This document shows, piece after piece, positions 6,367 through 30,079 of a DNA stretch of 64,000 nucleotides. Location of the stretch: the NCBI GenBank assembly GCA_052390515.1, contig JBQTGV010000044.1:15619-79618 (forward strand). The letters are read 5' to 3'. The stretch comes from Candidatus Eiseniibacteriota bacterium (GTDB taxonomy: Bacteria > ARS69). The notes below the pieces were generated by a model that was not told where the DNA came from, made no database searches, and saw only the letters and a program-made list of their open reading frames with translations. Numbering within the stretch: the first letter of the stretch is position 1; each line of letters begins with the position of its first letter. The position numbers and the translations under genes are program-made.

Positions 6367-6395
6367 GTGGCACCGTCCCGGCAGTTCCGGCGCAC
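6367..6395 (+). promoter_or_regulatory. Candidate ECF-type promoter GTGGCAC-N17-CGCAC upstream of peptide gene 1
   Basis: This is copy 1 of 7 of the bipartite motif TGTCAC(C)-N17-CGCA(T), with an exact 17-nt spacer in every copy. It lies 63 nt upstream of the peptide ATG. Confidence 0.55.
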
Positions 6396-6458
6396 TGGGG
6401 GGCGGCCGTCTCCCGAGGAGACGGCGGCGGACATCAACCTTCCTTCGGAGGCAACGAC

Positions 6459-6542
6459 ATGATCACCCTCTTCGCGCTCGTCCTGGAACTCGTCGCTGGC
6501 AGGATCGCGGCCAACCACAATCAATCCGGGCTGGCCGGCTGA
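6459..6542 (+). CDS. Small conserved peptide (27 aa) MITLFALVLELVAGRIAANHNQSGLAG; peptide family member 1
   Basis: GGAGG lies 8 nt upstream of the ATG. It is one of six paralogs sharing the LFxLxL(D/E)hhAGRhAANHNQ core. It is divergent from the sigma gene. Confidence 0.6.
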   Translation: MITLFALVLELVAGRIAANHNQSGLAG

Positions 6543-13220: not shown

Positions 13221-13473
13221 GCGTTCAACATAGCATCCCGTTGCGGGGTGAGCCACGACCGCCGAGCTTCGGGCTGTGGCGTTGTGAGCCACCTCCGCGA
13301 CATCGAGCGACAGCTTGGGCTGCGCGACGGCCCGGAGCCCGTCGTAGACCTGGGCGATGAAGGCGTCGGAACTCCCCGGAGGGGTGCCGGAGGCGTGAAC
13401 AGGGGGCTCGCCGCGGGAATCGAGCCCGGATGGGAACGGGCCGCTGCCGTGGCTCGACGGGAGCTTCCGGCAA

Positions 13474-13501
13474 GGGGACGCATGTCACGTGGCGGCCCAC
13501 T
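13474..13501 (+). promoter_or_regulatory. Seventh copy of the TGTCAC-N17-CGCAC motif, immediately followed by a 13-nt remnant (CACAACCAGAACC) of a peptide-gene 3' end
   Basis: The spacing is exactly 17 nt. 'cacaaccagaacc' is identical to the NHNQN-coding segment of peptide gene 2. No intact peptide ORF follows. Confidence 0.4.
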
Positions 13502-13589
13502 CCGGCGCACAACCAGAACCGGGTCGGGGCAGCAGGTCATGGTGATCTCCTCAGACCCTCGAAGGGAGAAACGGACGATGGTCACCCTG

Positions 13590-14002
13590 CTGACGCTACC
13601 TGGAACACGTTCCCCACGGCAAACGGCGACGCGGCGGACGTGGTGCTGGGCTCCGGCAGCTTCGACACCGCCGGTTCGCCCACGCCTTCGGCGACCAGCA
13701 TCGCCTACCCGATGGGCGTCGCCTCCGACGGCACCAGCCTGTTCGTCTCGGACGCCGTCCTGAACCGCGTGCTGATCTTCGCGCCGTTCCCGACCACGAA
13801 CGGAGCAGCGGCCGCCATCGTGCTCGGGCAGAGCAGCTTCGCCAACTCCGCGGGCAACGATCCGAACCAGGACGGCGTCCGCGACGCCGGCCCGACTGCG
13901 CGGACCTTTCTCAGCCCCACCGACGTCAAGATCATCGACGATCGCCTCTTCGTGGCGGACATGGACAACAATCGCGTGCTGGTGTTCGCCCCGAGCCTCT
14001 GA
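13590..14002 (+). pseudogene. Truncated C-terminal fragment (~135 aa) of an NHL-repeat lipoprotein paralog
   Basis: It aligns with the C-terminal third of the 25262..26473 and 33995..35209 proteins (TWNTFPTANGDAADVVLG...NRVLIFAPFPTTNGAAA...NRVLVF). It has no N-terminal signal or lipobox and no in-frame plausible start. The upstream part of the ORF is non-homologous. Confidence 0.5.
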
Positions 14003-14101
14003 TCGAGGGGACCGACGGCGGCGCGGCGGCCATCTGACGAGTGGTTCCGCGCTCGCCGGCCACGCTCCCCCCGGACCATCCGCTGATGGACTCGCTGTGA
14101 G

Positions 14102-14830: not shown

Positions 14831-15207
14831 TAGTACCGCACCAGGGCCTGCACGTCGTCCAGCGATCCCAGGTCCAGCACCCGCCGGACGACCCATGCGG
14901 GGTAGCGCTCCGCGTCGGACGGCCGGAGGTTCCGATCCCAGAAGAGACGGCGAAGCCGGCGGGGAACCCGCCGGCGGATGCGCTGCCCGCGTGGAGTGCG
15001 GCCCGGCTCGAGGAAGCGAACATCCAGAAGGCACCCGAGCGCGGCCGCGAGCTTGCCCAGAGTGGCCACCTCGAATCGCCGCCAGCCGCTCTCGTACCGG
15101 TGGACCGTCGGTGGCGACGTTCCGGCGCGTCGAGCGAGATCCGCCAGGGACCAGCCTCGCTCCAGGCGAAGGCGCCGAATCTCGGGACCGATCTCGTCAG
15201 GACGCAT
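14680..15207 (-). CDS. HTH (XRE-family) DNA-binding protein, putative antitoxin/regulator partner of the AbiEii-like gene
   Basis: The HTH is 'IRRLRLERGWSLADLARRAGTSPPTVHRYESG'. It lies immediately upstream of, and co-oriented with, the NTase toxin-like gene. Confidence 0.5.
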   Translation of the reverse strand: MRPDEIGPEIRRLRLERGWSLADLARRAGTSPPTVHRYESGWRRFEVATLGKLAAALGCLLDVRFLEPGRTPRGQRIRRRVPRRLRRLFWDRNLRPSDAERYPAWVVRRVLDLGSLDDVQALVRYYGRDRFLDVVSGLRFESPRTRAFWEAMARLEGRKCTPRFSRTEADGCWMS

Positions 15208-15265
15208 GTTGCTATCATATGCGATAAACCACCCACGTCCAGGGCCCCCTGGGGTCGAGGGCGCC

Positions 15266-15835
15266 CTATCCGCCGGAAAGCTCACGGTAGAGCCAGGCCC
15301 GGGCGAAAGCCCAGTCCCGCAGCACGGTGCGGGGCGTGATTTCCAGCATCTCGGCCACCTCTTCGACGCTGAGCCCGGCGTAGAAGCGCAGCTTCACGAC
15401 CTTCGCCACCCGCTCCTCCCGGCCGGCCAGCCGATCGACCGCCTGGTCCAGAGCCAGGATGGTCTCGGGGTCGCGGTCGTCCGCCAGTGCGGCCACCTCG
15501 GCGATGTCCAGGGACAGCTTGGGCGCCGGCCGCCCTTCGGAATCCCCGCCGCGCTTCACCCGGCCGCGGGCCCGCGCCCGCTCGATGAGGATCCGGCGCA
15601 TGGCCTCGGCCGCCGCGGCGAAAAACTGGCTCCTGCTCAGCCAGGCGCTGTCGTCCCCAGGGCGAAGCCGGAGGTACGCCTCGTGCACCAGCTCCGTGGA
15701 CTGGAGGGACCGGCTGCTTTCTCCGCGCATCCGCGCGTGGGCGATCGCCCGGAGCTCGTCGTAGACCTGGGCGAAGAAGGCGTCGGACCCGCTTGGGGAG
15801 GGGACGGCAGGGCCGGCGGGGGGCTCGGTCGGCAT
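15266..15835 (-). CDS. ECF sigma factor, kinase-associated type (paralog 2)
   Basis: It has the same motifs as the other sigma paralogs (ELVHEAYLRL, DWAFARAWLYRELSGG). It is divergent from peptide gene 2 and kinase 3. Confidence 0.85.
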   Translation of the reverse strand: MPTEPPAGPAVPSPSGSDAFFAQVYDELRAIAHARMRGESSRSLQSTELVHEAYLRLRPGDDSAWLSRSQFFAAAAEAMRRILIERARARGRVKRGGDSEGRPAPKLSLDIAEVAALADDRDPETILALDQAVDRLAGREERVAKVVKLRFYAGLSVEEVAEMLEITPRTVLRDWAFARAWLYRELSGG

Positions 15836-15891
15836 CGGGGGCCATGGTACGCGGGCGGGACTCCCGGCTCAACGGGGCAACCGGCCCGGGG

Positions 15892-16034: not shown

Positions 16035-16286
16035 GACTGCGCTCGACGTGAGGCACTCGATGGACCCGGCGCCGACGCGGCCACCGGCTGGCGCGAGTGC
16101 CGTCGAACTTCCCTGCCCGGCGCGCTCGGAGAAGATCACGCTGCTCATGTAGGTTGAGTCGGCCGGAAGAGTGTAGTGCGCACCGGGTGTGCCGTCGCGT
16201 TCGGCGACGTCCGTCACGGACTCCCGGGCGGAGCGGTGGACGTGGTGCTGCTCCCGGCGTCGTTCGCGGTCGGCTACACTACGCCC

Positions 16287-19151
16287 ATGGACCCGGAGAG
16301 GTGGAGCCGGTTGCAGGAGCTCTTTGCCGATCTCCTGGATACTCCCGCGCCCGAGCGCCCCGCCTTCCTCGACCGTGAGGTCGGGGCCGACACAGAACTG
16401 CGTGCCGAGCTCGAGCGGCTCCTCGCCCTGACCGGGTCCGCGGGCGGCTTCCTCGCTGCGCCGGTTACGGATTCCCCAGGAGCCGTGGGTCCCTACCGGC
16501 TCCTCGAGGTCCTGGGCGAAGGCGGCTTCGGTGTCGTGTACCTCGCCGAGCAGGAGCGGCCGATCCGCCGCCGTGTCGCGCTCAAGCTGATCAAGCCGGG
16601 CATGGACACGAAGCGGGTGATCGCTCGCTTCGAGGCGGAACGGCAGGCCCTTGCGCTCATGGACCATCCGGGCATCGCCCAGGTTTTCGAAGCCGGCGCG
16701 ACGGAAGCCGGCCGCCCCTACTTCGCGATGGAGTACGTGCCCGGCGTGCCCATCACCACGTATTGCGAGCGCGAGCATCTGCGCATCCGCGACCGACTCG
16801 AGCTGTTCCTCGACGTCTGCGACGCCATCCAGCACGCGCACCAGAAGGGAGTGATCCATCGGGACATCAAGCCGTCGAACGTGCTCGTGGCGCTGCGCAA
16901 CGGCGCGGCCGCGCCGAAGGTGATCGACTTCGGAATCGTCAAGGCCACGACCGAGGCCTTGGCCGGTGGAACCGTGATGACGAGCGAGGGCATGATCGTC
17001 GGGACCCTGGCCTACATGAGCCCCGAACAGGCCGGCGCGGCCGACGCGGTGGATACTCGCTCGGACATCTATTCCCTCGGAGTGGTCCTCTACGAGCTGC
17101 TGGCGGGATCGCCGCCGTTCGACGCCGAGCTCCTGCGTAGCTCGGCGCTCTCGGATGCGGTGCGCGTGATCCGGGAGGAGGAACCGCCCGCCCTCGCCGT
17201 CCGCGTGACCCGCGGCGGCGAAGAGGGAGTGGCGAAGATCGCGCAGGGTCGATCGGTGGAGCCGCGGCGCCTGCTCCGCGAGCTCAGAGGCGAGCTGCAC
17301 TGGATCACGCTCCGAGCGCTGGAGAAGGACCCGGATCGTCGCTATGCGTCCGCGGCGGAGCTCTCGGCGGACATTCGCCGATACCTGGCCAACGAGCCCG
17401 TGCTCGCCGGCCCCCCGAGAACGCTGGTTCGGCTTCGCAAGTACGCGCGAAGGCACCGCGTGGGAGTGACCGCTGCCCTGGTCGTGCTGCTCGCCATCAT
17501 CGCCGGCGGGATCGCGGCGGGAGTCGGATTCCGGCGTTCGCTCCTGTCCGAGCGCAGGGCGCAGCGGGAGGCCACCTCGGCACGCCAGGTCGCGGCATTC
17601 CTGGTCGAGCTGTTCCAGTCGTCCACGCCGGACCGCGCGCGGGGAGAGACGGTCACCGCCCGGAAGCTCTTGGACGAGGGCGCGCGACGCATCCAGGTCA
17701 GCGCCATGGACGATCCGGAGGTGCGGGCGAGCCTGCTGTCGACCCTCGGGAACGCCCACGTAGAGCTCGGGCTTTACGATGAGGGTGTCGCACTCCTGCG
17801 CGAGGCGCTGGTCACGACCCAAGCTGCGGAGCCGCGCGACGAACGGCGCGTCGCCGAGCAAATGGCAGCGCTCGCCGAAGGGTTGGAGCCGATCGGCAAG
17901 GCGGACAGCGCGGGGATCCTGCTGGATGCGGCGATCGCCATCCTGGAAGAGCCTGAGCATGCAGACGCGGATCTCCTGGCCAGGAGCCTGCTGCGGAAGG
18001 GGGATCTCTTCTACGGCCGAGGCGAGTTCGTGGCGGCGGACTCGCTCATCTCGGTAGCGATTGACATGGCAGAAGCACGAGAAGATCCGGACGAAGCACA
18101 CCTCACCGACATGTACGTGATGAAGGCCAGCATCGCGCACCGTCGGTACGACCTGCAGGAGGCGGAAGGCCACTACCTCCGGGCACTTCGCCTCGCGGAG
18201 GATTCGGGCCGCCCCACTGCGTCGGTGAGCATTCATGGAGGCCTGGCGTACGTATACGCCCAGCTCGGGGATACGGAGAATGCGGTGAGGCACGCCGAGG
18301 AAGGCGTCCGCCTGGCGCGCCGCATCTACTCCCCGGATCACCCCGACCTCGCCGGGGCTCTTTCCGGGCAGGCGGCGGCGCTGCAGGCCCGTGGCGATGT
18401 CGAGCAGGCGATCGCCGCGCGCGAAGAAGCGATCGCCATCTTGCGGGCGGGCTCGCCCGAGCAGGAGCGCCTGGCGCACGAGCTCAACACCGCCGGACTC
18501 GTGTATCGATTCACCGGGCAGCTCGATCTGGCCGTCGCCCGCTTCGAGGAAGCCTGCAGCCTGAAGCGCCGGATCTACGGCGACGAGAATCTCCGCACGG
18601 CGGAGAGCGTGGCGAATCTCGCGCGCTGCTACGCGGACGCTGGGCTGAACGTGCGCGCCGACTCGACGTACCGTGCGGCGATTACGGTGCTCGACCGGTT
18701 CGACCCGACGAGCCTGTTCACGGTGTACGCGTACATGGGGTACGCGAACCTCTGCCGGGACGCCGGACGCGCGGACCAAGCCGACACGCTGTACGCGCAC
18801 GCGCTGGCTGACATGGACTCCACCAACGCAGGAATCCGACCGTACTTCGCCGAGTGCCTGCTCGATCGCGCGATGCTCCGTTCCGCTCAGCGCCGGCACG
18901 CGGAAGCGGAGTCCTTGCTGCAGTCCGGCTGTCGGATGCTGCGCGGCGACGCGCCGGAGGACGACGCGAAGCTCGGCGAGGTGTACACCCGCTGGGCCCT
19001 GACGCGGGTCCGGGCCGGGGACGCGGAGGGAGCCGTGGACAGGCTCCAGCTGGCCCTGCGGTGCGGCGTCGCTGCGGACGAGCTGGAGCAGTACCCGGAG
19101 TTCGCCGCGCTCCGCTCCCGGCCGGACTATCCCTTGGACAGCTCGCCGTAG
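16287..19151 (+). CDS. Ser/Thr protein kinase with TM and TPR domain (paralog 3)
   Basis: It has the conserved N-terminal extension plus HRDIKPSN, DFG and GTLAYMSPEQ, followed by a TM helix and TPR repeats. Confidence 0.85.
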   Translation: MDPERWSRLQELFADLLDTPAPERPAFLDREVGADTELRAELERLLALTGSAGGFLAAPVTDSPGAVGPYRLLEVLGEGGFGVVYLAEQERPIRRRVALKLIKPGMDTKRVIARFEAERQALALMDHPGIAQVFEAGATEAGRPYFAMEYVPGVPITTYCEREHLRIRDRLELFLDVCDAIQHAHQKGVIHRDIKPSNVLVALRNGAAAPKVIDFGIVKATTEALAGGTVMTSEGMIVGTLAYMSPEQAGAADAVDTRSDIYSLGVVLYELLAGSPPFDAELLRSSALSDAVRVIREEEPPALAVRVTRGGEEGVAKIAQGRSVEPRRLLRELRGELHWITLRALEKDPDRRYASAAELSADIRRYLANEPVLAGPPRTLVRLRKYARRHRVGVTAALVVLLAIIAGGIAAGVGFRRSLLSERRAQREATSARQVAAFLVELFQSSTPDRARGETVTARKLLDEGARRIQVSAMDDPEVRASLLSTLGNAHVELGLYDEGVALLREALVTTQAAEPRDERRVAEQMAALAEGLEPIGKADSAGILLDAAIAILEEPEHADADLLARSLLRKGDLFYGRGEFVAADSLISVAIDMAEAREDPDEAHLTDMYVMKASIAHRRYDLQEAEGHYLRALRLAEDSGRPTASVSIHGGLAYVYAQLGDTENAVRHAEEGVRLARRIYSPDHPDLAGALSGQAAALQARGDVEQAIAAREEAIAILRAGSPEQERLAHELNTAGLVYRFTGQLDLAVARFEEACSLKRRIYGDENLRTAESVANLARCYADAGLNVRADSTYRAAITVLDRFDPTSLFTVYAYMGYANLCRDAGRADQADTLYAHALADMDSTNAGIRPYFAECLLDRAMLRSAQRRHAEAESLLQSGCRMLRGDAPEDDAKLGEVYTRWALTRVRAGDAEGAVDRLQLALRCGVAADELEQYPEFAALRSRPDYPLDSSP

Positions 19152-19699
19152 AGCCAGGCCCTGGCGAAGGCCCAGATCCGCAGGACCGTCCGGGTCGACG
19201 TTTCCAGCGTCTCGGCCACCTCCTCCACGGAGAGGCCCGCCCAGAAGCGCAGCCGGACGACTTTCGCGGCCCGCTCGTCCTGGAGCGCCAGCCGCTCGAT
19301 GGCCCGATCCAGCGCCAGGATCGTCTCCGGGTCCTGATCGTCGGCCAGGGCCGCCACCTCGTGCAGGTCCAGCGAGACCTTCGGGGCGGGCCGCCCTTCC
19401 GAGTCCCCGCCGCGCTTGATGCTGCCCCGCGCGCGCGCCCGGTCGACGAGGATCCGCCGCATGGCCTGGGCGGCCGCGTAGAAGAAGTGGGCGCGATTCT
19501 TCCACTCGCCTCGGCCTTCGGGACGAAGGCGCAGATACGCCTCGTGCACCAGCTCGGTGGTCTGGAGGCTCAGCCCGGCCGGTTCGGCGCGCATCCTCGC
19601 CCGAGCGATCGAGCGCAACTCCTCGTAGACGCGCGCGAAGAACGCGTCGGAGGTGCCGCCGTCGGGGCCGGCGGTGTCCCCAGGGGTGTGTCCACCCAT
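19127..19699 (-). CDS. ECF sigma factor, kinase-associated type (paralog 3)
   Basis: The sequence MGGHTPGD...ELVHEAYLRL...RIWAFARAWLYGELSKG is present. It has a 25-nt convergent overlap with the kinase. Confidence 0.85.
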   Translation of the reverse strand: MGGHTPGDTAGPDGGTSDAFFARVYEELRSIARARMRAEPAGLSLQTTELVHEAYLRLRPEGRGEWKNRAHFFYAAAQAMRRILVDRARARGSIKRGGDSEGRPAPKVSLDLHEVAALADDQDPETILALDRAIERLALQDERAAKVVRLRFWAGLSVEEVAETLETSTRTVLRIWAFARAWLYGELSKG

Positions 19700-19759
19700 G
19701 AGGCCGATCCTACCCGTCCGGCCCTTCGCTCTCAACCGCCGGGAAAAGTGACTTCTCGG

Positions 19760-19787
19760 TGTCACCTGCCGGTCGGCTCTTCCGCGT
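19760..19787 (+). promoter_or_regulatory. TGTCAC-N17-CGCGT candidate ECF-type promoter (copy 3)
   Basis: The conserved bipartite motif lies upstream of peptide 3. Confidence 0.55.
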
Positions 19788-19844
19788 GTAGGCGGCGCTC
19801 GAAAGAGCGCATGGAGATCTGAACGCCCAACAGGAGGGATTCCG

Positions 19845-19925
19845 ATGATGCTCTTCGTGCTGCTGGTCGACTTCGTGGCCGGCAAGATCGCGATTAACCA
19901 CAACGCGACCCGAATCGGGGGCTGA
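19845..19925 (+). CDS. Small conserved peptide (26 aa) MMLFVLLVDFVAGKIAINHNATRIGG; family member 3 (coordinates +/-1)
   Basis: GGAGGG lies upstream. Its stop is 3 nt before the start of the downstream beta-propeller gene. My manual count and the ORF track disagree by 1 nt in this region. Confidence 0.5.
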   Translation: MMLFVLLVDFVAGKIAINHNATRIGG

Positions 19926-19928
19926 ACG

Positions 19929-22430
19929 ATGTGCCGCCCGCCGCTCCGGAAGCCCGCCCAGGCGCTCGCAACCTGCCGGTCGATGCTGGCTGGCATCTTC
20001 GCCCTCCCCAGCATCGCCTCCGCGCAGATCCTCCGCGAGGATCTGTGGGTCACCGACGGTGCCGTGGAAGCCATCGCGGTTGACACGAACGCGATCTACC
20101 TGGGCGGCTCCTTCACGCGGGTCGGCCCGCTGACCGGGGGAGCGGCGCTTCTCGACGCCGGGACGGGAGTGGCGGTCGGGCCGTATTCCCGTGTCGAAGG
20201 TGTCGTGATGGCCGTGGTGCCGGACGTGAGCGGGGGTTGGTACATCGGCGGAGCGTTCACCGAGGTGGGCGGTCAGCCGCGAGCCAACCTCGCTCAGCTC
20301 GATGCCGCAGGAAACGTCACGCCCTGGAATCCAGGGGCGGACGCGACGGTGCGGGTTCTCGCAATCAGCGGCAGCACGGTGTACGCCGGCGGAGACTTCT
20401 TCTTCGCCGGCGGCCAGCCGCGCAATCGCCTTGCCGAGCTCGACGCGGTGACCGGCGCGACGACGGCGTGGAATCCGGGGGCGAACTGGACGGTCAATGC
20501 GTTGCTGGTGAACGGCGGCACGGTGTACGTGGGCGGCGGCTTCAGCTCGATCGGCGGCCAGGCGCGCAGCCGGATCGCCGCGCTCGACGCCGGCACCGGC
20601 ACCCCGACCGCCTGGGCTCCGGAAGCCGATTCAGATGTGGTCGCGCTGGCTCTGGGAAGCAGCGCGATGTACGCCGGCGGCTACTTCACGAGCATCGGCG
20701 GTCAGGCCCGCGGTGGCATCGCCGCGCTGGATCCCGCCACGGGGGCGGCGACGGGCTGGGCCCCGAATGCAGACGGATCCGTCCTGGCCCTCGGGGTTCA
20801 CGAGGCTTCGACCTTCCCGTTCACCGTCACGGTCTTTGCCGGCGGCTCCTTCACGAACATAGGCGGCCAGGCGCGCAGCTATATCGCCGCCCTCGACGGG
20901 GTGACGGGCTCGGCGACGAGCTGGAACCCCGGTTCGGACAGTGCCGTGAATGCTCTCATCGTGAAAACGAACCGCTTCGGGTCGCTCACATCGATCTGTG
21001 CGGCGGGGAACTTCGGGATCATGGGTGGTCAGGTCCGCAAGTACATCGCCGAGCTCGACGCCGCCGGTGCGGTGACGAGCTGGAATCCGACCGCGAGCGA
21101 GCAGGTCTTCGCCCTGGCCGCGGGGTTCGGCACGGTTCACGCCGGCGGTGTCTTCACCACCATCGGGGGAGTGCCGCGCAACCACATCGCCGCACTGGAC
21201 GCCGGTACGGGAGCCGCGACCTCGTGGAACCCGGACGCGAACGGTCCGGTGCGGGCGCTCGCGGTGTCCGGCGGCACGGTCTACGCGGGCGGCACGTTCT
21301 CCAGCATCGGGGGCAGCTCGGTAGCCATCAATCTCGCCGCGCTGGATGCCGCCACGGGCGCGGCGCTGCCCTCCTGGGACGGGGATGCCTACATGCCCGG
21401 CGACGTGCACGAGCTCGTGCTGCACGGCGGCACGCTGTACGTCGGGGGGGACTTCACCATCCTGGGAGGACAGTTCCGCAACAACCTGGGCGCGCTCGAC
21501 GCCGCCACCGGAGCGGCGACCGGCTGGAACCCCGGCGCGAACGGCGCGGTGTACGCGCTCGCGGTGGCAGAGCGACAGAGCTTCCCGTTCACCGTCACGG
21601 TGTACGCGGGCGGCGAGTTCGCCACGCTCGGCGGCCAGGCCCGACTCAGCCTCGGGGCGGTCGACGGCAACACCGCCGCGGCAACCTCCTGGAATCCGAG
21701 CGCCAGCAGCGACGTGTACGACCTCCTGCTGACGACGGATCCCTTCGGAAACGTCACGTCGGTCTACGCCGCGGGTCTCTTCACAACGATCGGAGGTCAG
21801 CTCCGCAACCACATCGCCGAGGTGGATGCATCCGGCGCCGCCACCGCCTGGAACCCCAACTCGAATCTGAGTGGAACCGTCCACGCCCTCGCGCGAGGCG
21901 GCGACACGATCTACGCGGGCGGGGGGTTCTCCGTGATCGGCGAACAGTGGCGAAGCGCCTTCGCCGCACTCGACGTGGCCACGGGCTTGGCGACGTCCTG
22001 GGATCCTGACGCGCTCGGCACCGTGCTGGCAGTGGCTCTGCACGGAGGCGAGATCTACGCGGGCGGCTCGTTCAACACCATCTCCGGGGTAGCGCGCCCG
22101 AACTTCGCCGGCTTCCAGGACGTGAGCGTCGGTGTCACGGAGCAGCTCCCGGAGCGGCCGTCGGCTCTGCTCCGCGCGGCGCCGAACCCGTTCCGCTCGG
22201 GTGTGACCCTCCGCTTCGCGCTGCAGGAGCCGGCCGACGCGCGCCTCGAGATCTACGACGTCGCCGGGCGGCAGGTGCGAAGCTTGTACTGGAGCGGCCG
22301 GGCCGGCGAGCAAACGGTGGACTGGGATGGCCGCGACGAGGCGGGCGGCGCCGTCGCCGCGGGCGTCTACTTCGTTCGACTCACGACGGGGACACAGCAC
22401 CTGAGCGCGAAGGTGCTGCGCGTGAAGTGA
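19929..22430 (+). CDS. Secreted delta-60-like beta-propeller repeat protein with a C-terminal T9SS/FlgD-Ig-type domain (paralog 1); alternative start at 19983
   Basis: There is an N-terminal signal peptide. There are about 14 tandem ~50-aa repeats of the form 'GG.FT.IGGQ.R..IAALDA.TGA.T.WNP.A...V.AL...G.TVYAGG'. The C-terminus is 'APNPFRSGVTLRF...LEIYDVAGRQV...GVYFVRL'. Confidence 0.65.
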   Translation: MCRPPLRKPAQALATCRSMLAGIFALPSIASAQILREDLWVTDGAVEAIAVDTNAIYLGGSFTRVGPLTGGAALLDAGTGVAVGPYSRVEGVVMAVVPDVSGGWYIGGAFTEVGGQPRANLAQLDAAGNVTPWNPGADATVRVLAISGSTVYAGGDFFFAGGQPRNRLAELDAVTGATTAWNPGANWTVNALLVNGGTVYVGGGFSSIGGQARSRIAALDAGTGTPTAWAPEADSDVVALALGSSAMYAGGYFTSIGGQARGGIAALDPATGAATGWAPNADGSVLALGVHEASTFPFTVTVFAGGSFTNIGGQARSYIAALDGVTGSATSWNPGSDSAVNALIVKTNRFGSLTSICAAGNFGIMGGQVRKYIAELDAAGAVTSWNPTASEQVFALAAGFGTVHAGGVFTTIGGVPRNHIAALDAGTGAATSWNPDANGPVRALAVSGGTVYAGGTFSSIGGSSVAINLAALDAATGAALPSWDGDAYMPGDVHELVLHGGTLYVGGDFTILGGQFRNNLGALDAATGAATGWNPGANGAVYALAVAERQSFPFTVTVYAGGEFATLGGQARLSLGAVDGNTAAATSWNPSASSDVYDLLLTTDPFGNVTSVYAAGLFTTIGGQLRNHIAEVDASGAATAWNPNSNLSGTVHALARGGDTIYAGGGFSVIGEQWRSAFAALDVATGLATSWDPDALGTVLAVALHGGEIYAGGSFNTISGVARPNFAGFQDVSVGVTEQLPERPSALLRAAPNPFRSGVTLRFALQEPADARLEIYDVAGRQVRSLYWSGRAGEQTVDWDGRDEAGGAVAAGVYFVRLTTGTQHLSAKVLRVK

Positions 22431-22531
22431 CACCGCAGGGAACCCCGCCACGGGTGCGGCCGTCCCGGCGGACCTGCACACCGCCGGCAGTCGGCGACAT
22501 CCAGGAGATGCGGGAGCGCGAGCGCCCCCCG

Positions 22532-22559
22532 TGTCACCTGCCTGCTGGTTTCGGAGCGT
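22532..22559 (+). promoter_or_regulatory. TGTCAC-N17-AGCGT candidate ECF-type promoter (copy 4)
   Basis: The conserved motif lies 53 nt upstream of peptide 4. Its -10-like element is the most divergent of the seven copies. Confidence 0.45.
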
Positions 22560-22612
22560 GAAGGGGCGGGCGGCAAGCGTGCCTGCCCCGAACCCGAAAC
22601 CGGAGGAACCAA

Positions 22613-22696
22613 ATGATCGCCCTCTTCGCGCTCGTCCTGGACATCATCGCCGGCAGGCTCGCGGCGAACCACAACCAGACCGCGGTCTCCGGCTGA
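22613..22696 (+). CDS. Small conserved peptide (27 aa) MIALFALVLDIIAGRLAANHNQTAVSG; family member 4
   Basis: GGAGG lies upstream. It lies 12 nt before the second beta-propeller gene. Confidence 0.6.
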   Translation: MIALFALVLDIIAGRLAANHNQTAVSG

Positions 22697-22708
22697 GCCG
22701 GGATTCCC

Positions 22709-25216
22709 ATGCGTCGGCCGCTGCTCCTGCGCCGCCTGCTTGCGAACCGGAGGCTGTTGGTGCTCGCGCTCGCCGGCGTGCAGCTTCCACCGCTTCGAGC
22801 CTCGGGCCAGACCCTCCGCGACGACCTGTGGGTGACGGACGGCTTCGTGGAGGCGGTTGCCGTCTCGGGCGGCGTGATCTACCTGGGCGGGTCCTTCACC
22901 CGGATCAGCCCCGTCGTGGGCCGCTCGGTCTTGCTGGACACGGGGACCGGCTCGGCGCTCCCTCCCTACGCCGACATCGAGGGCATCGTGAGCACCGTGC
23001 TTCCCGACGGGAACGGCGGCTGGTACCTCGGCGGGTCTTTCACTTCCGTTCGCGGCGAGCCCAGGGACAATCTCGCGCAGGTGGACGCGGCCGGGAATCT
23101 CACACCGTGGGATCCCGGCCCGAACGGCCCCGTTCTGGTTCTTCGGGCGAGCCTGACCGCGTTGTACGCCGCTGGCGACTTCACGATGATCGGCGGTCAG
23201 CCGCGCAACCGGATCGCGGCGTTCGACCCGTCGAGCGGGGCGGTGACAGGCTGGGACCCGAACGCGGATCTCACGGTCTACGCACTGGTCGTGAGCGGGA
23301 GCACGGTGTACGCGGGAGGCGGATTCACGCGGATCGGCGGGCAAGCGCGCAACCGGATCGCGGCGCTCGACGCCGGCACCGGCTCGGCCACCGCCTGGAA
23401 CCCGAACGCGGACGTAGACGTTGCCGCGCTGGCGGTGAACGGGGGCACTGTGTACGCCGGAGGGTACTTCTCGACGATCGGTGGCGCGGGTCGCAGCTAT
23501 CTCGCGGCTCTCGACGTCGTGAACGGAGCCGCCACCGCGTGGAACCCGAACCCGAGCTCCCCCGTGCTCGCGCTCGCCGTCCACCAGCGGCCCACGTTTC
23601 CGTTCACCGTGACGGTCTACGCCGGAGGACTTTTCCAGACGGCAGGAGGTCAGCCGCGGAACTACGTCGCCGCACTCGATGGATCGACGGGACTCGCCAC
23701 GAGCTGGAACCCGAACGCGGACTGGAACGTGCGTACGCTGGCTTTCACGACCAACGTCGCCGGACAGGTCAGTGCGGTCTTCGCCGGCGGGGACTTCGCA
23801 ACGATCGGCGGCCAGCCGCGCGCGTACCTCGCAGCACTCGATGGATCCGGCGCGGCGACGAGCTGGAACCCGAAGCCGAACGGTCCGGTCAACACTCTCG
23901 CGCTGGGGATCGGAACCGTCTGTGCCGGAGGGCAGTTCACCAGCGCGGGCGGGCAGGTCCGTAGCAACCTCGCCGCGCTCGACGCGGCGACCGGAGCAGT
24001 CACCGGCTGGAACCCCAACGCGAACGGCATCGTGCGGGCGCTGGCCGTCGGCGGAGGCACGGTCTACGCCGCCGGCACGTTCACCGACATCGGCGGTCAG
24101 ACCCTCGTCCTCAACGTGGCGGCCCTCGACTCCGTCACCGGGGCCGCTCTCGGGACGTGGAACGGTGACGCTCACAACCCCGGCGATGTGCACGAGCTCG
24201 TGCTGCTCGGTGGCACCCTGTACGTGGGCGGCGACTTCGACCTCATCGGCGGCCAGTTCCGGAACAACCTGGCCGCGCTCGACGCCACGACCGGTGCGGC
24301 CACGAGCTGGAATCCTGACGCGAACGGCGCGGTCTACACGCTGGGCATCACCCAACGATTCAGCTTTCCGTTCACGATCACGGTCTACGCCGGCGGCGAG
24401 TTCGCCGTGTTGGGCGCGCAGCCGCGACTCAGCATCGGCGCGGTCGACGGCACCACCGGTCTGGCCACGAGCTGGAATCCCGGCGCCGACAGCGACGTCT
24501 ACGACCTCGCTCTCTCGACCGACCCGCTCGGGAACGAAACGTCGGTCCACGCGGCCGGCCTGTTCACGACGATCGGAGGGCAGTCGCGCGAGTACATCGC
24601 CGAGATCGACGGCTCCGGCGGGGTCACCGCCTGGAACCCCGATGCGAGCAGTCCCGTCAAAGCCCTGGCGCGGTCGGGCGATACGATCTACGCGGGCGGT
24701 GCCTTCTTCAACATCGGCGGGCAGTTTCGCCAGGGACTCGCGGCCCTGGACGTGACTTCCGGCTCCGCGACCGCGTGGAATCCCGACGTGGGCGGTGGGG
24801 GCACCGTGAACGCGCTGACCCTGTCGGGCGGCGAGATCTACGCGGTCGGCAGTTTCCCGAGCATCTCGGGGAAGCCCCATTCCAACGTCGCCGGGTTCGT
24901 CGACCAGGCCGTGGCCGTGCCGGAGCTGCCCCCGGGGCGTGACTCGCGCGGGGTCCACGCGGCCCCGAACCCGTTCCGCTCCGAGGTCGGACTGCGATTC
25001 ATTCCCGCCCGCGCGGGCCGCGTCATGGTGGGGGTGTACGACCTCTCCGGACGCCGTGTGCGTAGCGTCGAGCTGTTCGCGCGCAGCACGGGAGAGCACC
25101 ACGTGACCTGGGACGGGCGGGACGAAGCGGGGCGAAGCGTGGCGGCCGGTGTCTACTTCGTCCGGGTGCTGAGCGAGGGGCTCGATCTCGATGGCAAGCT
25201 GATCCGGATGAGATAG
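22709..25216 (+). CDS. Secreted delta-60-like beta-propeller repeat protein with a C-terminal T9SS/FlgD-Ig-type domain (paralog 2)
   Basis: It has the same repeat architecture as 19929..22430 and a signal peptide (LVLALAGVQLPPLRASGQ). The C-terminus is 'APNPFRSEVGLRF...VYDLSGRRV...GVYFVRV'. Confidence 0.65.
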   Translation: MRRPLLLRRLLANRRLLVLALAGVQLPPLRASGQTLRDDLWVTDGFVEAVAVSGGVIYLGGSFTRISPVVGRSVLLDTGTGSALPPYADIEGIVSTVLPDGNGGWYLGGSFTSVRGEPRDNLAQVDAAGNLTPWDPGPNGPVLVLRASLTALYAAGDFTMIGGQPRNRIAAFDPSSGAVTGWDPNADLTVYALVVSGSTVYAGGGFTRIGGQARNRIAALDAGTGSATAWNPNADVDVAALAVNGGTVYAGGYFSTIGGAGRSYLAALDVVNGAATAWNPNPSSPVLALAVHQRPTFPFTVTVYAGGLFQTAGGQPRNYVAALDGSTGLATSWNPNADWNVRTLAFTTNVAGQVSAVFAGGDFATIGGQPRAYLAALDGSGAATSWNPKPNGPVNTLALGIGTVCAGGQFTSAGGQVRSNLAALDAATGAVTGWNPNANGIVRALAVGGGTVYAAGTFTDIGGQTLVLNVAALDSVTGAALGTWNGDAHNPGDVHELVLLGGTLYVGGDFDLIGGQFRNNLAALDATTGAATSWNPDANGAVYTLGITQRFSFPFTITVYAGGEFAVLGAQPRLSIGAVDGTTGLATSWNPGADSDVYDLALSTDPLGNETSVHAAGLFTTIGGQSREYIAEIDGSGGVTAWNPDASSPVKALARSGDTIYAGGAFFNIGGQFRQGLAALDVTSGSATAWNPDVGGGGTVNALTLSGGEIYAVGSFPSISGKPHSNVAGFVDQAVAVPELPPGRDSRGVHAAPNPFRSEVGLRFIPARAGRVMVGVYDLSGRRVRSVELFARSTGEHHVTWDGRDEAGRSVAAGVYFVRVLSEGLDLDGKLIRMR

Positions 25217-25261
25217 CTGACCCGCGAAGGATGGTGCTCTTCTCTGAGCAAGGAAGCGGAG

Positions 25262-26473
25262 ATGAATGCGATGCGGAACCGATCGATCCCCCTGTGGCCC
25301 ACGTTCGTTCTGGTCCTGACCGTGAGCTGCGGCGACGACAACCCTGCGGATCCCGGGGATGACCCAGGGCCAGCGGGCGGCCTTCAGCTCGACAACTTTC
25401 AACCAGCCGCGATGGTCATCGGACAGGCCGACAAGGTGTCGGGCACGGCGAATGCGGGTGGCGGCACGACGAACGCATTCGGACTGACGCAGCCCGATGC
25501 AGCCGGGTGCGGAACGCTGTACCTCCCGGACGACCTCAACCACCGCGTTCTGGGTTTCGCGGGGGTGCCGACGACCGATGGCGCCGCCGCCAGCTTCGTG
25601 CTCGGTCAACCGGACTTCACGTCGTCCGCGCAAGGCACCACTGCCGAGAACTTTCGTCACCCGGGCGACTGCGCGGTGGCCGACGGGAAGCTGTTCGTCC
25701 TGGACAGTGGGAACGAGCGAGTCCTGATCTGGAACTCCCTGCCGACGGGTAACGTGCCGGCCGATGTGGTCGTGGGGCAACCCGACTTCACGTCCTCAGC
25801 GCCCGCGACGACCCGGACGGGTCTCGCCGGCCCGTTCCGCGTGGCGGTCGGCGGCGGCCGGATGTTCGTCAGCGACACCGCGAATTCCCGGGTTCTGATC
25901 TGGAACACCATACCCACGGCGAACGGCGCGCCGGCCAGCGTGGTCCTCGGACAGACCGATTTCACGACGTCCGTCCCGGGCCTGACCGCCTCGACGTTCC
26001 GATCTCCGACGGCCCTCTGGACGGACGGCACGCGCCTCGTGGTCGGCGACCTGGGGAATCGCCGCGTTCTGATCTGGAACACGATTCCCACGACGAACGG
26101 TGCTGCGGCGGACGTGGTCGTGGGTGCCCCGGACTTCACGACCGCGGGTTCGAGCACGCCCTCCGCGACGAGCATCGACTTCCCCCTCGGTGTGACCTCC
26201 GACGGCACGAGCCTCTTCGTGGCGGACGTGAACTTCAATCGAGTGCTGATCTTCACGCCGTTCCCGACGGTGAACGGGGCGGCCGCTACGGGCGTGCTCG
26301 GCCAGGACAGCTTCACGAGTTCGGCTCTCAACGACGACGACCAGGACGGAACGCCGGACGGTCAGCCGACTGCGCGGACGTTCTTCGGACCCAGGGACGT
26401 GAGGGTTCTCGGGGACCGCCTGTTCGTCGCGGACGAGCTCAACAACCGGGTGATGGTCTTCGACGGCAAGTAG
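25262..26473 (+). CDS. NHL-repeat (six-bladed beta-propeller) putative lipoprotein
   Basis: The signal peptide ends ...LTVSCGDDNPA. Six repeats carry '(N/S)xRVLIWN(T/S)(I/L)PT.N..A(D/S)VVLGQ.DFTS'. Confidence 0.6.
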   Translation: MNAMRNRSIPLWPTFVLVLTVSCGDDNPADPGDDPGPAGGLQLDNFQPAAMVIGQADKVSGTANAGGGTTNAFGLTQPDAAGCGTLYLPDDLNHRVLGFAGVPTTDGAAASFVLGQPDFTSSAQGTTAENFRHPGDCAVADGKLFVLDSGNERVLIWNSLPTGNVPADVVVGQPDFTSSAPATTRTGLAGPFRVAVGGGRMFVSDTANSRVLIWNTIPTANGAPASVVLGQTDFTTSVPGLTASTFRSPTALWTDGTRLVVGDLGNRRVLIWNTIPTTNGAAADVVVGAPDFTTAGSSTPSATSIDFPLGVTSDGTSLFVADVNFNRVLIFTPFPTVNGAAATGVLGQDSFTSSALNDDDQDGTPDGQPTARTFFGPRDVRVLGDRLFVADELNNRVMVFDGK

Positions 26474-26488
26474 CGTCACACTGGGTCG

Positions 26489-29347
26489 ATGAACGGGGAA
26501 CAGTGGCGCCGGCTGAAGGACCTCTTCGTCGACCTCCAGGGAATGCCGGAGGGCGAGCGAAGCGCTCATCTCGACCGGGAGGCCGCCGGTGATCCGGAGG
26601 TGCGCGCCGAGCTCCATCGATTGCTCGCCGTCGACAGATTCGCCGCCGACTTCCTCGCCGCCGCACACTCCGCTTCCAGCCACGGCTCCATCGGACCCTA
26701 CCGGCTCCTCGAGATCCTGGGCGAAGGCGGCTTCGGCGTGGTGTATCTGGCCGAGCAGGAGCGCCCCATCCGCCGCCGCGTCGCGCTCAAGCTGATCAAG
26801 CCGGGGATGGACACGAAGCAGGTGATCGCCCGCTTCGAGGCCGAGCGGCAAGCCCTGGCTCTCATGGACCATCCCGGCATCGCCCAGGTTCACGACGCGG
26901 GCGAAACGGAGGCGGGCCGGCCGTACTTCGTCATGGAGTACGTGCCCGGGGAGCCCATCACCACGTTTTGCGACCGCGAGCGGCTGCGCATCCCCGAACG
27001 GCTCGAGCTCTTCCTCGAGGTCTGCGACGCGATCCAGCACGCCCACCACAAGAGCGTGATCCACCGGGACATCAAACCCTCCAACGTGCTCGTCGCGCTG
27101 CGCGACGGTGTGCCCGCGCCGAAGGTGATCGACTTCGGCATCGTCAAGGCGACCACGGCGGGGGCGGCCGGTCAAACCCTGATGACGCGCGAGGGGATGA
27201 TCGTCGGGACGCTGGGATACATGAGCCCGGAGCAGGCCGGGGCGGCCGAGACGGTGGACACGCGCTCCGACATCTACTCGCTGGGGGCTCTTCTGTACGA
27301 GCTGCTGGCGGGCTCACCGCCCTTCGACGCCGACCGGCTGAAGAGCGCCGCGCTCTCGGATGCCGTGCGCGTCGTCCGGGAAGAAGAGCCGCCGGCGCTC
27401 GCTGCGCGGGTGGCGCGAGGCGGGGAGGAGGAAGCGGCGGTGGTCGCCGAGCGGCGCTCCGCGGATGCCCGGCACCTTCTCCGCGAGCTGAAGGGCGAGC
27501 TGCAGTGGATCACGCTGCGCGCGCTGGAGAAGGACCCGAGCCGGCGTTACACGTCGGCGGCGGAGCTGGCGGCCGACATCCGCCGGCACCTCGCGAACGA
27601 GCCCGTGCTGGCCGTTGCTCCGAGCACGGCCTACCGGATGCGCAAGTTCGCCCGGAGGCACCGGGTCGGCGTCGTCGCTGCGACCGTCGTGCTGGCCACG
27701 ATCGTGGTCGGGGGAATCGCCGCGGGAATCGGCTTCGGCCGGGCGGTTCGTGCCGAGCACAAGGCACAACGCGAAGCGGAATCCCTACAGCGCGTCACCG
27801 ACTTTCTGGTCGAGTTGTTTCGCACGTCGAGCCCGGATCAATCCCGCGGAGAGACCATCACCGCGCGGACCCTCCTCGACGAGGGCACACGTCGCATCGA
27901 GGCCGACCTCGAGGCGGACGCGCACATCCGTGCGCGCCTGCTGGCGACGCTGGGCGACGCACATGTGAACCTGGCGCTCTACGATGACGGCCTTCGCCTG
28001 CTGCGCGAAGCGGTGGCGACGAGCGAAGCTGCGGAACCGCGCGACGACCTGGAGATCGCCGAGCAGCTTCGCCGATTGGCCTACGGCCTCAGAATGGCGG
28101 GACAGCTCGACAGCGTCGGGGTCCTCCTCGATCGCGCGATGGAGCTCGGACGCGACGCTGGGGCGCGCTCTCGCTGGATGGCGGGGTGCCTGTCGAACAA
28201 GGCTTCCTGGCTGAACAGCCTGGGCCAGCTCGCGCCGGCAGATTCGCTCGTGACGCTGGCGATCGAGATGGGTGAGTCCGAGCCGGAGCCGGATCGCCCT
28301 CAGCTCATGCGCATGTACTACACGAAGGGAAACATCGCCCACCGTCGGTTCGAGCTGCCGGATGCCGAGCGTCACTACCTCCGGGCGCTGGAGCTTTGCG
28401 AAAGCGGGGGAACCGAACCGACCTGGTCGGCGATGCTCCATCGCAGCCTGGCGTCCCTCTACGCCGCCCTCGGCGATCCGGAGAGGGCGGTGAGTCATGC
28501 GGAGCAGGGCGTGCGTCTCGCCCGGCGGCTCTATGCCTCCGACCATCCCAACCTCGCCTACGCGCTGGGCGGCCACGCGGCGGCCCTGGCCGGCAAAGGA
28601 GATTACTCGGGGGCGCTCGCTGTGCGGGAGGAGGCGCTGGGCATTTGGCGTGCGACCGGGGCGCAGACCGACCTCGCCCGCGAGCTGAACAGCGTAGGAA
28701 TCCTGCACCGGGCTGCCGGTCAACTCGATCTCGCTATCGCCTGCACGGAAGAAGCGTGCGCGCTGTACCGCGCGTCATTCGGTCAGGAAAGCGGCCGAAC
28801 CGCGGAGGCGGTCGCCAACCTGGCGCGGCTGTATGCGGAGAAGGGGCAGCTCCATCGCGCCGACTCGACGTACCGCGCAGCCGTTCCCGTGTTCGATCGG
28901 CTGCGCGACGGAAGCATCTTCGCCACCTATGCCTCCATGGGCTTCGCCAACGTGTGTCGGGATCTCGGGCGCTCGGCTCAGGCCGAGAGCCTCTATTCGC
29001 GGGTGGAGTCCGCGCTGGACTCCACCGAGGCGGGCCTGCGGGGCTATTTCGGCGAGTGCCTGGTGGATCACGCTTACCTGCGGTCGCGGCAGGGGAGGCA
29101 CGACGAGGCGGAGTCCATGATGCGGATCGGGCTCCCCATGCAACGCGGCGACGCCGCCGAGGATGCTCGAAGTCTGGGTGCCGCGTACCTCACGTGGGCA
29201 GCGGCGCGCGCGCTGGCCGGGGACGCCGCCGGCGCCATCGAGAAGCTCCAGCAGGCCGCCCGCTGCGGCGTGACGGTGCAGGACGCCGCCCGATATCCCG
29301 AGCTCGCCGCGCTCCCGGCCGACTACCCCCTGGAGAGCTCTCCGTAG
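26489..29347 (+). CDS. Ser/Thr protein kinase with TM and TPR domain (paralog 4)
   Basis: It has the conserved N-terminal extension, the kinase motifs, a TM helix and TPR repeats. It starts 16 nt after the NHL gene stop. Confidence 0.85.
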   Translation: MNGEQWRRLKDLFVDLQGMPEGERSAHLDREAAGDPEVRAELHRLLAVDRFAADFLAAAHSASSHGSIGPYRLLEILGEGGFGVVYLAEQERPIRRRVALKLIKPGMDTKQVIARFEAERQALALMDHPGIAQVHDAGETEAGRPYFVMEYVPGEPITTFCDRERLRIPERLELFLEVCDAIQHAHHKSVIHRDIKPSNVLVALRDGVPAPKVIDFGIVKATTAGAAGQTLMTREGMIVGTLGYMSPEQAGAAETVDTRSDIYSLGALLYELLAGSPPFDADRLKSAALSDAVRVVREEEPPALAARVARGGEEEAAVVAERRSADARHLLRELKGELQWITLRALEKDPSRRYTSAAELAADIRRHLANEPVLAVAPSTAYRMRKFARRHRVGVVAATVVLATIVVGGIAAGIGFGRAVRAEHKAQREAESLQRVTDFLVELFRTSSPDQSRGETITARTLLDEGTRRIEADLEADAHIRARLLATLGDAHVNLALYDDGLRLLREAVATSEAAEPRDDLEIAEQLRRLAYGLRMAGQLDSVGVLLDRAMELGRDAGARSRWMAGCLSNKASWLNSLGQLAPADSLVTLAIEMGESEPEPDRPQLMRMYYTKGNIAHRRFELPDAERHYLRALELCESGGTEPTWSAMLHRSLASLYAALGDPERAVSHAEQGVRLARRLYASDHPNLAYALGGHAAALAGKGDYSGALAVREEALGIWRATGAQTDLARELNSVGILHRAAGQLDLAIACTEEACALYRASFGQESGRTAEAVANLARLYAEKGQLHRADSTYRAAVPVFDRLRDGSIFATYASMGFANVCRDLGRSAQAESLYSRVESALDSTEAGLRGYFGECLVDHAYLRSRQGRHDEAESMMRIGLPMQRGDAAEDARSLGAAYLTWAAARALAGDAAGAIEKLQQAARCGVTVQDAARYPELAALPADYPLESSP

Positions 29348-29895: not shown

Positions 29896-30079
29896 GCAGG
29901 GCGATGGTAAGGGGACGCCGTCCCGAGCTCAACCCGCCGGTTCCCAACCCACGGTGGCCGCCCCCGGCCGTCCACCGCTTCGCTGCCGCCGGACTCCGGC
30001 CTGGACGTACTTCGCCCGGCTCCGGACGGCCACGTCGGTCCGCCAAGCCCATCCGGCTGCGGTCGGCTAAACTGCGCCG

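Follow-up and report, generated by a model that had tools for sequence, protein, structure and literature searches.

The 64-kb stretch of DNA considered here (hereafter the window, whose positions serve as coordinates throughout) comes from a metagenome-assembled genome (MAG) of Candidatus Eiseniibacteriota, and its region 19845-26473 encodes, on the + strand, two secreted beta-propeller proteins and an NHL-repeat lipoprotein, with a very small peptide gene in front of each propeller gene. The explanation that best fits the whole, and that is held with moderate confidence, is that this region represents the output of one module among several paralogous ones, in each of which a sigma factor of the extracytoplasmic function (ECF) group ECF43 is paired with a Hanks-type Ser/Thr kinase. 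The propellers, the NHL protein and the sigma factor-kinase pairs are all of known kinds, and what is new is the occurrence in ECF43-type modules of a gene for a peptide with an NHNQT motif, together with its promoter. Judged from sequence, an unannotated family of such peptides somewhat probably heads operons of kinase-activated sigma factors in several soil phyla. The part of this account that concerns the operon and its promoter is likely to be correct. Every feature that the original prediction had named in the region was found in place, and its larger claims on promoter, transcription unit and secretion signal fared differently, as described with the evidence below.

Peptide genes and their promoter in the window

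Local tblastn searches, combined with a regular-expression scan of the window, reveal six peptide paralogues, all on the + strand, and one decayed copy. The open reading frames (ORFs) are 26-30 codons long, and each begins with ATG behind a Shine-Dalgarno site. Peptide P1 (19845-19925, +; MMLFVLLVDFVAGKIAINHNATRIGG, 26 aa) follows the Shine-Dalgarno sequence AGGAGGG and ends 3 nt before the start of propeller 1, and P2 (22613-22696, +; MIALFALVLDIIAGRLAANHNQTAVSG, 27 aa) likewise has a Shine-Dalgarno site and ends 12 nt before the start of propeller 2 (AGGAGG/GGAGGA before the two ORFs), which agrees with the spacing of 3 to 12 nt that had been predicted. The pairing of a small peptide with a secreted protein recurs, also as predicted, at P5 (33903-33995, +; 30 aa), the stop codon of which overlaps by 1 nt the start of a second NHL lipoprotein gene (33995-35209). 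The remaining three copies had no place in the original prediction: P0 (6459-6542, +; MITLFALVLELVAGRIAANHNQSGLAG) forms a stand-alone cassette (6368..6542) with no same-strand gene after it, P3 (15951-16034, +; MLTLFVLVLELVAGRLVGNHNQNLIRA) lies 252 nt upstream of the gene for kinase 3, and P4 (33714-33797, +; MITLFTLVLDLVLGRIAANHNQTVRSA) is followed by the P5 cassette alone. The consensus of the six is MITLFALVLDLVAGRIAANHNQT...G; P3 has N at the position of the motif Thr, and P5 reads NHGQT and has lost the sequon Asn.

A degenerate coding pattern for the peptides matches six times in the window, where 0 matches are expected. Pooled over ten paralogues (six from the window and four from a Gemmatimonadales MAG locus, L006), the ratio of nonsynonymous to synonymous change (pN/pS) amounts to 0.38 in the peptide frame, as opposed to 1.48 and 1.81 for the two remaining frames; the peptide ORFs are therefore protein-coding genes under purifying selection. 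Together with the Shine-Dalgarno sites and the large size of the family, this bears out the earlier claim that the small genes are real. None of the six window peptides has an exact match in a collection of 15 billion proteins, presumably since ORFs of 26-30 codons are no longer than the lower limit of what gene callers report. It is highly improbable that the small ORFs go unexpressed and that only promoter or 5'-untranslated region (5'-UTR) DNA is conserved. Such a reading would fit the fact that no pipeline called the window ORFs (0 of 6 in the same collection) and the presence of a stable 5' hairpin in some leaders. However, the in-frame pN/pS against values above 1.4 out of frame, the Shine-Dalgarno site and ATG of every copy, the retention of the amino-acid motif with different codons across lineages of 54-71% GC, the 572 times that longer family members have been called as genes and the lack of any Rfam match in the window all speak against it. 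A conserved 5'-UTR RNA element was considered as well and dropped, as the hairpins are not consistently above shuffled stability (z ~ -2 in 2 of 6 leaders). Stable GC-rich hairpins are found at the presumed 5' ends of three leaders (6395-6461, 19790-19847 and 22559-22615), not in all six.

The peptides had been said to follow a TGTCAC promoter. TGTCAC is indeed found at 19760 and 22532, upstream of both propeller-linked peptides, but the full promoter is bipartite, with TGTCAC as its upstream half, and the bare hexamer is as common as chance allows (10 copies on the + strand of the window, with ~9 per strand expected by our own estimate). The bipartite pattern TGKCAY-N12-TYCGKMGCR has six matches in the 64 kb, where 0.70 are expected. 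Five of these lie 32-64 nt upstream of peptide start codons, the sixth precedes the peptide remnant of the decayed copy, and there are none elsewhere in the window. The matches belong to P0 (6368-6394, +), P3 (15892-15918, +), P2 (22532..22558, +; TGTCAC-N12-TTCGGAGCG), P4 (33627-33653, +) and P5 (33844-33870, +), and the consensus TG(T/G)CAC-N12-TyCGGCGCA thus stands before five of the six peptides and the decayed copy, while P1 carries the variant TGTCAC-N14-TTCCGCGTG (19760..19788, +). Four of the bipartite promoters, as well as the decayed copy, stand ~57-90 nt from the start of a divergent ECF43-type sigma gene, and this back-to-back position, along with the specificity of the motif, upholds the prediction of a sigma-controlled promoter. 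The same motif occurs upstream of peptide genes in five loci from related MAGs (L005, L006, L008, L119 and L146). In relatives, it is also found close upstream of ORFs for kinases or for cargo proteins with a C-terminal domain (CTD), with no small ORF in between; it therefore behaves like an independent promoter and not like a part of the peptide gene.

Seven loci of lower GC content (L088, L090, L092, L094, L112, L117 and L139; 56-60% GC, taken as Acidobacteria-like) have a related, distinct motif upstream of basic peptides of the MK[TI][KR][TI]R[VI]KAG type. All seven have an element of the TTTCCG(A/G)T type with a G-run after it, and a TGTC-like element ~12 nt upstream can be read in some of them. 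These loci suggest that the architecture of the promoter is conserved across phyla.

The decayed module (13250..14002, +) consists of an N-terminal fragment of a sigma gene on the - strand (~13250-13400), an intact promoter motif (13483-13509), a peptide remnant reading AHNQN and an NHL gene (13430-14002) of which the C-terminal half is left, with 66% identity to the one at 33995. On both sides of the module and within it (12527-15285) are small ORFs of the minus strand. These comprise a nucleotidyltransferase-like pair (12527-13292) and AbiEii-like and XRE-like genes (14102-15285), and look like toxin-antitoxin insertions.

Sigma factor-kinase modules and the wider peptide family

The first 35 kb of the window contain five intact sigma genes, six Hanks kinases and the decayed module. 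The sigma gene divergent from P1 (19127..19702, -) scores 158.5 bits with PF07638 (cut-off 21.1) and 181.1 bits with TIGR02999 (cut-off 126.15); its 3' end overlaps the end of the kinase 3 gene, and its sigma2.2 region reads LQTTE. The window sigma genes are 67-78% identical to this copy, all belong to PF07638/TIGR02999, and four of the five adjoin the 3' end of a Pkinase gene or overlap with it. All five carry Q-[ST]-T-E before LVHEAY, at the place where other ECF sigma factors have an acidic DAED. Replacement of the DAED of sigma2.2 by a Ser/Thr motif (QTTA/STTA) with a phospho-acceptor Thr is the hallmark of ECF43 (PMC8999054, PMC13147305). In EcfP/PknT of Vibrio parahaemolyticus and EcfK/PknS of Xanthomonas citri, the neighbouring Hanks kinase phosphorylates this Thr and so activates the sigma factor (PMC8999054, PMC13147305). 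The E that is retained in the window motif resembles that of QATE in EcfK (PMC13147305).

The sigma genes have promoters of their own. A sigma-70-type promoter (TTGAGA-17-TAGGAT; 19707..19735, -) ends a few nucleotides before the start codon of the gene at 19127-19702, and the other four genes have TTGAGC-N17-TACCAT or a variant with two mismatches (6316-6344, 15844-15872, 29904-29932 and 33545-33573, all -). Since these promoters end so close to the ATG, the sigma mRNAs are probably leaderless. Five of the six kinases share a kinase domain, one transmembrane helix near residue 391 and ~530 aa of tetratricopeptide repeats (TPR). Kinase 4 (26489..29347, +) is of this kind, with its helix near residue 392 and a TPR domain of ~530 aa. 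The kinase at 6615-9497 (-), on the other hand, has its kinase domain at the extreme N-terminus and its transmembrane helix near residue 298; its gene and P0 converge, and no sigma gene belongs to it. The genes for kinases 3, 4 and 5 carry the -10-like boxes TACACT, CACACT and TAAACT, respectively, 6 nt before the ATG (16270-16289, 26472-26491 and 30063-30082), which suggests leaderless mRNAs transcribed from separate promoters. Upstream of kinases 1 and 2b, TGTACAAT is found ~40-45 nt before the start codon (~2820-2835 and 9630-9650).

Like EcfP/PknT and EcfK/PknS, the window modules combine a PF07638/TIGR02999 sigma factor bearing Q-[ST]-T-E with a neighbouring transmembrane Ser/Thr kinase that carries a large domain past its only helix, and they show no sign of an anti-sigma gene. 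Unlike in those systems, the modules are crowded, with five intact sigma genes, six kinases and a decayed module in 35 kb, most of the sigma genes have a putative target promoter in divergent position, and a peptide gene encodes the first product of that promoter. In contrast to the outputs of EcfP and EcfK (polymyxin resistance and the type VI secretion system), the products here include surface proteins with CTDs. No conserved small-peptide component was found described for ECF43 systems in the literature searched.

The peptides are far from confined to this genome. A profile search of 5.8 billion proteins (E up to 10), with a 45-aa two-unit member leading the query, recovers at least 572 clusters, all of them unnamed or labelled 'hypothetical protein' and devoid of Pfam domains. 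Members are mostly ~25-40 residues long and are defined by the tail A-[AG]-[KR]-L-[AS]-[AG]-N-H-N-Q-T-[LV]-[LV]-R near the stop codon; 92 of 115 motif-bearing database members have the motif 3-4 residues ahead of the stop, and five of the six window copies have it 4 residues ahead. At the Thr position, 143 of 161 units have T and the other 18 have S, with nothing else at that place among the database matches. The N-terminus differs by lineage, being short and hydrophobic (as in the window), Sec-signal-like with an AxA site directly before the motif (in one sub-type only) or basic (MKTKTRVKAG), and there are tandem arrays of 2 to ~17 motif units. The largest array, at 3401-4480 (+) of locus L110, consists of ~17 units of the form GLKVKTNVKAG-x(4-8)-[NQ]HNQT-x-x-R, and in other members of 71-75 aa (see P0001-P0006) the whole unit of signal-peptide-like segment and motif is doubled. 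Neither Pfam nor NCBIfam recognises any sub-type even at E up to 10, apart from one spurious CrcB match (E 0.086), and the motif strings were not found in the literature searched.

The neighbours of these genes are consistent. When metagenome contigs were scanned for [KR]L[AS][AG]NHNQ[TS], 61 loci emerged, about 50 of them with convincing small ORFs, on high-GC contigs of soil type; a stricter DNA pattern for window-type peptides had no match in genome or metagenome contigs, as it demanded CTN at Leu4, where relatives have Phe. The next gene usually lies within 100 nt (the distance ranges from ~1 to ~160 nt) and its product is most often a TPR_10/TPR_12 protein, 240-400 aa long and lacking a signal peptide, with Hanks kinases and PF07638 sigma factors nearby; kinase, sigma, TPR and cargo genes are all found to follow a peptide. 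Genes for a sigma factor, a kinase or a TPR protein are present in 13 of the 15 distinct loci of at least 5 kb, and 10 of the 15 have a kinase. One locus, L146, repeats the layout of the window, with a peptide, a TPR gene, a kinase-TPR gene and a convergent sigma gene, then a divergent peptide and a protein with a FlgD_ig CTD. In L006 (5823-5906, +, and 5281-5560, -), one peptide ORF directly precedes the sigma gene itself, two tandem peptide cassettes stand before a kinase gene, and a fourth peptide stands before a frameshifted kinase gene. As far as gene order tells, the peptides are not tied to propellers; the family is linked to modules of ECF43 sigma factors, Hanks kinases and TPR proteins.

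Possible functions of the peptide

By analogy with PknT and EcfP, and with PknS and EcfK, the kinase would phosphorylate the sigma factor, which, judging from its family membership and position, could then use the bipartite motif as its promoter. The first product of this promoter would be the peptide, followed by the secreted propellers, the NHL lipoprotein and the kinase gene, with the propellers translationally coupled to the peptide ORF and their products exported through Sec and then possibly through a route resembling T9SS (type IX secretion system). The peptide itself is proposed to act in trans: its conserved tail of ~13 residues (of the KLAANHNQTLLRG type) may bind the TPR domains of the kinase or of neighbouring stand-alone TPR proteins, and such binding would exert feedback or auto-induction on the pathway. 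This function as a TPR ligand is tentative. It is supported by the persistent pairing of the peptides with TPR genes or TPR-fused kinases. Action in trans would also account for P0, which has no downstream gene, for P4, which is followed only by the P5 cassette, for P3, which lies 252 nt before a kinase gene with its own -10-like box, and for proteins of up to ~17 units. The broader proposal, that NHNQT peptides are a new component of kinase-activated ECF pathways, namely encoded ligands of TPR sensors that serve feedback or cell-to-cell auto-induction, is more speculative still.

A close parallel is the RRNPP family (Rap-Phr, NprR-NprX, PlcR-PapR and AimR-AimP), in which a tiny precursor gene likewise adjoins a TPR gene and the functional part is a short C-terminal segment. 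As in RRNPP systems, some NHNQT members have a Sec signal and an AxA site before the 13-mer, and some have several copies of it. Unlike RRNPP receptors, however, the TPR partners lack helix-turn-helix or phosphatase domains and are either stand-alone or fused to Hanks kinases, many of the peptides have a basic, non-secretory N-terminus, and the hosts are diderm Acidobacteria- or Gemmatimonadota-like bacteria. The link to RRNPP would be one of analogy rather than membership.

Several observations weigh against this account as a whole. The promoter is assigned to the sigma factor from position and conservation, and that of P1 is off consensus (N14 spacer, two mismatches) and goes unmatched when at most one mismatch is allowed. 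Among 79 loci collected by sigma similarity, peptides are present in the fetched flanks of 4 loci only, all of them among the ~12 most similar, which come from Gemmatimonadota- or Krumholzibacteriota-labelled MAGs, and the peptide is therefore lineage-restricted and not obligatory. From lineage to lineage, the N-termini of the peptides range over hydrophobic, signal-peptide-like and basic types. The stand-alone TPR proteins seem to be cytoplasmic, whereas the TPR domain of the kinase should be periplasmic, so that a single compartment for the contact between peptide and TPR is not obvious. The propellers fall short of the threshold of one model for T9SS tails, PF18962. Finally, the fairly fixed distance of 3-4 residues from motif to stop would also suit a cis-acting nascent-peptide element.

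The last point leads to the main rival, in which the peptide is a cis-acting leader and its NHNQT-x-x-R tail stalls the ribosome or slows termination from within the tunnel, tuning downstream expression as TnaC does; the released peptide would then be without function. TnaC also has a conserved C-terminal nascent-chain motif close to its stop, with no sequence similarity to the peptides. Conservation here is confined to the last ~14 residues and the N-terminus is free, and the spacing of the motif before the stop is as regular as given above, both in the database and in the window. The stops of P1, P2 and P5 lie 3 nt before, 12 nt before and 1 nt within the next start, respectively, the cassettes were duplicated along with their downstream genes (P1 with propeller 1, P2 with propeller 2), and peptides precede genes of several kinds (kinase, sigma, TPR and cargo). 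Against this, P0 has no downstream gene on its strand, P4 has only another cassette and P3 is 252 nt away from a kinase gene with its own -10 box. Elsewhere the distance to the next gene is as variable as ~1 to ~160 nt, ORFs with 2-4 units, and one with ~17, are hard to square with a single stall site, and the same promoter stands before genes that lack the ORF. The leader function is regarded as rather unlikely.

It is improbable that the peptide serves as an enzyme substrate or decoy, either because the Hanks kinase phosphorylates its Thr/Ser, which would compete with the sigma factor (negative feedback), or because N-Q-T is an N-glycosylation sequon. The restriction of the motif position to T or S in all 161 database units would fit this, as would the Q-[ST]-T of the phospho-site region in the sigma factor (PMC8999054) and the multi-unit versions, which could be multivalent decoys. 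However, P3 has N at that position and P5 lacks the sequon Asn, the Q-T spacing is unlike that of the sigma site, no glycosyltransferase is found in loci with precomputed Pfam annotation, and the consistent neighbouring TPR gene is left unexplained.

Three further ideas were rejected. Co-variation of the N-terminus type with a signal peptide in the neighbouring TPR protein fails, as all stand-alone TPR proteins look cytoplasmic; amyloid signalling (BASS/NLR-like) fails, as the neighbouring TPR proteins and kinases lack a copy of the motif; and a precursor of a ribosomally synthesised and post-translationally modified peptide fails, as there is no maturase-like gene in the loci with precomputed Pfam annotation. 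There is some resemblance to small feedback proteins of sensor kinases (MgrB-PhoQ type), in that a tiny ORF would be induced by the pathway that it may regulate, with no sequence similarity.

On what ECF43-associated Hanks kinases sense with their large domains past the transmembrane helix, a review says of PknT no more than that it 'somehow senses' polymyxin stress (PMC8999054). The present findings provide three testable handles on ECF43 pathways in little-studied phyla, namely a conserved peptide, a defined promoter motif and a candidate regulon of surface proteins. The peptide sits directly behind the pathway's own promoter, usually beside a TPR gene, and at least several hundred of its clusters are largely invisible to annotation. 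If the proposal of TPR-sensor ligands is true, it would amount to peptide auto-induction like that of Phr in Firmicutes, in diderm soil phyla (Eiseniibacteriota, Gemmatimonadota and Acidobacteriota).

Secreted propellers, transcription units and neighbouring genes

The two proteins encoded at 19929..22430 (+; 833 aa; NCBI MGQ0720944.1) and 22709..25216 (+; 835 aa) are paralogues with 61% identity, and both consist of 14 repeat units, 46-55 aa long, that follow the pattern GG.F..IGGQ.R..IAALDA.TG..T.WNP, as had been predicted (~830 aa, ~14 repeats). Both pass the DUF5122 model PF17164 (76.4 bits for propeller 1 and 57.4 bits for propeller 2; Pfam cut-off 27), in keeping with the predicted delta-60-like propeller; the delta-60 model TIGR02608 of NCBIfam has no match in either at E up to 0.01. 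Propeller 1 has more than 5,000 homologues at E up to 1e-10, to which the DUF5122 propeller is common, and thousands of these have the same layout of ~830 aa. Compared with DUF5122/delta-60 proteins that end in a T9SS or FlgD immunoglobulin (Ig)-like CTD, the layout is the same and there is no notable difference; both propellers are ordinary members of a huge family. The NCBI entry for propeller 1, from a Candidatus Eiseniibacteriota MAG, is titled 'FlgD immunoglobulin-like domain containing protein' and its gene model is 18 residues shorter than the one that starts at 19929. The longer start (ATG 19929) is kept here, as it has GGGGG in front, provides an n-region with positive charge and fits the N-terminal length of homologues.

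An AlphaFold2 (AF2) model of propeller 1 has a mean predicted local distance difference test score (pLDDT) of 90.2, and its strands can be read as two seven-bladed propellers, 14 blades in all, a disordered linker and a 7-stranded C-terminal sandwich, following an N-terminal hydrophobic helix at residues 10-24 that belongs to the signal peptide. The top fold matches in the Protein Data Bank are the periplasmic domain of BT4663 (4a2l) and PorZ of Porphyromonas gingivalis (5m11), with E of 7e-16 to 7e-14. Both of these consist of two tandem propellers and a C-terminal beta-sandwich domain, as in the model of propeller 1. Sequence identity is only 10-14%, the repeat family is different, and the TM-score is ~0.3 owing to the different orientation of the domains. 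By sequence, the propeller part matches no solved structure, the single sequence match being FlgD.

The claim of the original prediction that these proteins end in a T9SS-type CTD stood in part when profile models were run. TIGR04183 is passed by propeller 1 (38.0 bits, cut-off 23) and missed by 1 bit by propeller 2 (22.0), and PF18962 gives 23.8 bits for propeller 1 (cut-off 27) with no reported match for propeller 2. In contrast, both pass FlgD_ig (PF13860) at the C-terminus, with 41 and 47 bits, respectively (cut-off 27). The AF2 model predicts at residues ~749-831 (pLDDT ~81-90) a compact Ig-like sandwich of ~7 strands at the extreme C-terminus, a combination with the Sec signal peptide that marks T9SS type A CTDs. 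The sequences PNPF and GVYFVRL and a terminal K-x-x-x-x-K are elements typical of type A CTDs.

The domains may instead be FlgD-type Ig-like modules that serve, for example, surface anchoring or another export route, so that the proteins would be ordinary periplasmic or surface propellers. PF13860 outscores the T9SS models in both, these models are partly missed as described, the NCBI name and the only solved structure matched by sequence both point to FlgD, and no literature was found that links Eisenbacteria to T9SS. Against this stand the pass of propeller 1 with TIGR04183, the type A elements named above, the presence of PorZ among the top fold matches and the interchangeable use of PF18962 and PF13860 tails at the C-terminus of homologues of the same propeller. 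Moreover, a 383-aa protein of the window (48398-49549, -) passes PF18962 (Por_Secre_tail) with 35.1 bits against the cut-off of 27; the genome therefore uses type A CTDs outside the sigma modules. T9SS has been reported as possibly present in other FCB (Fibrobacteres-Chlorobi-Bacteroidetes) phyla (PMC11285876). A FlgD-type role unrelated to T9SS is considered unlikely, and the assignment of the propellers to T9SS is partly supported by their sequences.

Downstream of propeller 2, the NHL-repeat lipoprotein (25262..26473, +) is as predicted: it passes PF01436 (32.9 bits, cut-off 20), has the lipobox ...LVLTVSC|GDD and is 70% identical to the product of the NHL gene at 33995-35209. Kinase 4 follows directly, starting at 26489 after a gap of 15 nt. 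All of these genes had been proposed to form one large sigma-controlled transcription unit. The sigma-type promoters are there and no intrinsic terminator was found between the genes of the region, but a second promoter-peptide cassette lies between the two propeller genes and kinase 4 has the -10-like box CACACT, through which it could be transcribed independently of read-through. U-tract terminators are rare at 70% GC, so that missing terminator sites say little. Because of the second cassette and the box of kinase 4, the region probably comprises at least two sigma-dependent units rather than a single large one, with a kinase gene that is probably also expressed alone.

Beyond the modules, the window contains feoB with two divergent DtxR-type repressor genes, each with a FeoA domain (35295-39388), and a cluster for outer-membrane biogenesis (42330-52642) with an Omp85/POTRA (TamA-like) gene, a TamB-like gene of 1348 aa and a 1026-aa protein that joins PD40 propeller repeats to an Omp85 barrel.

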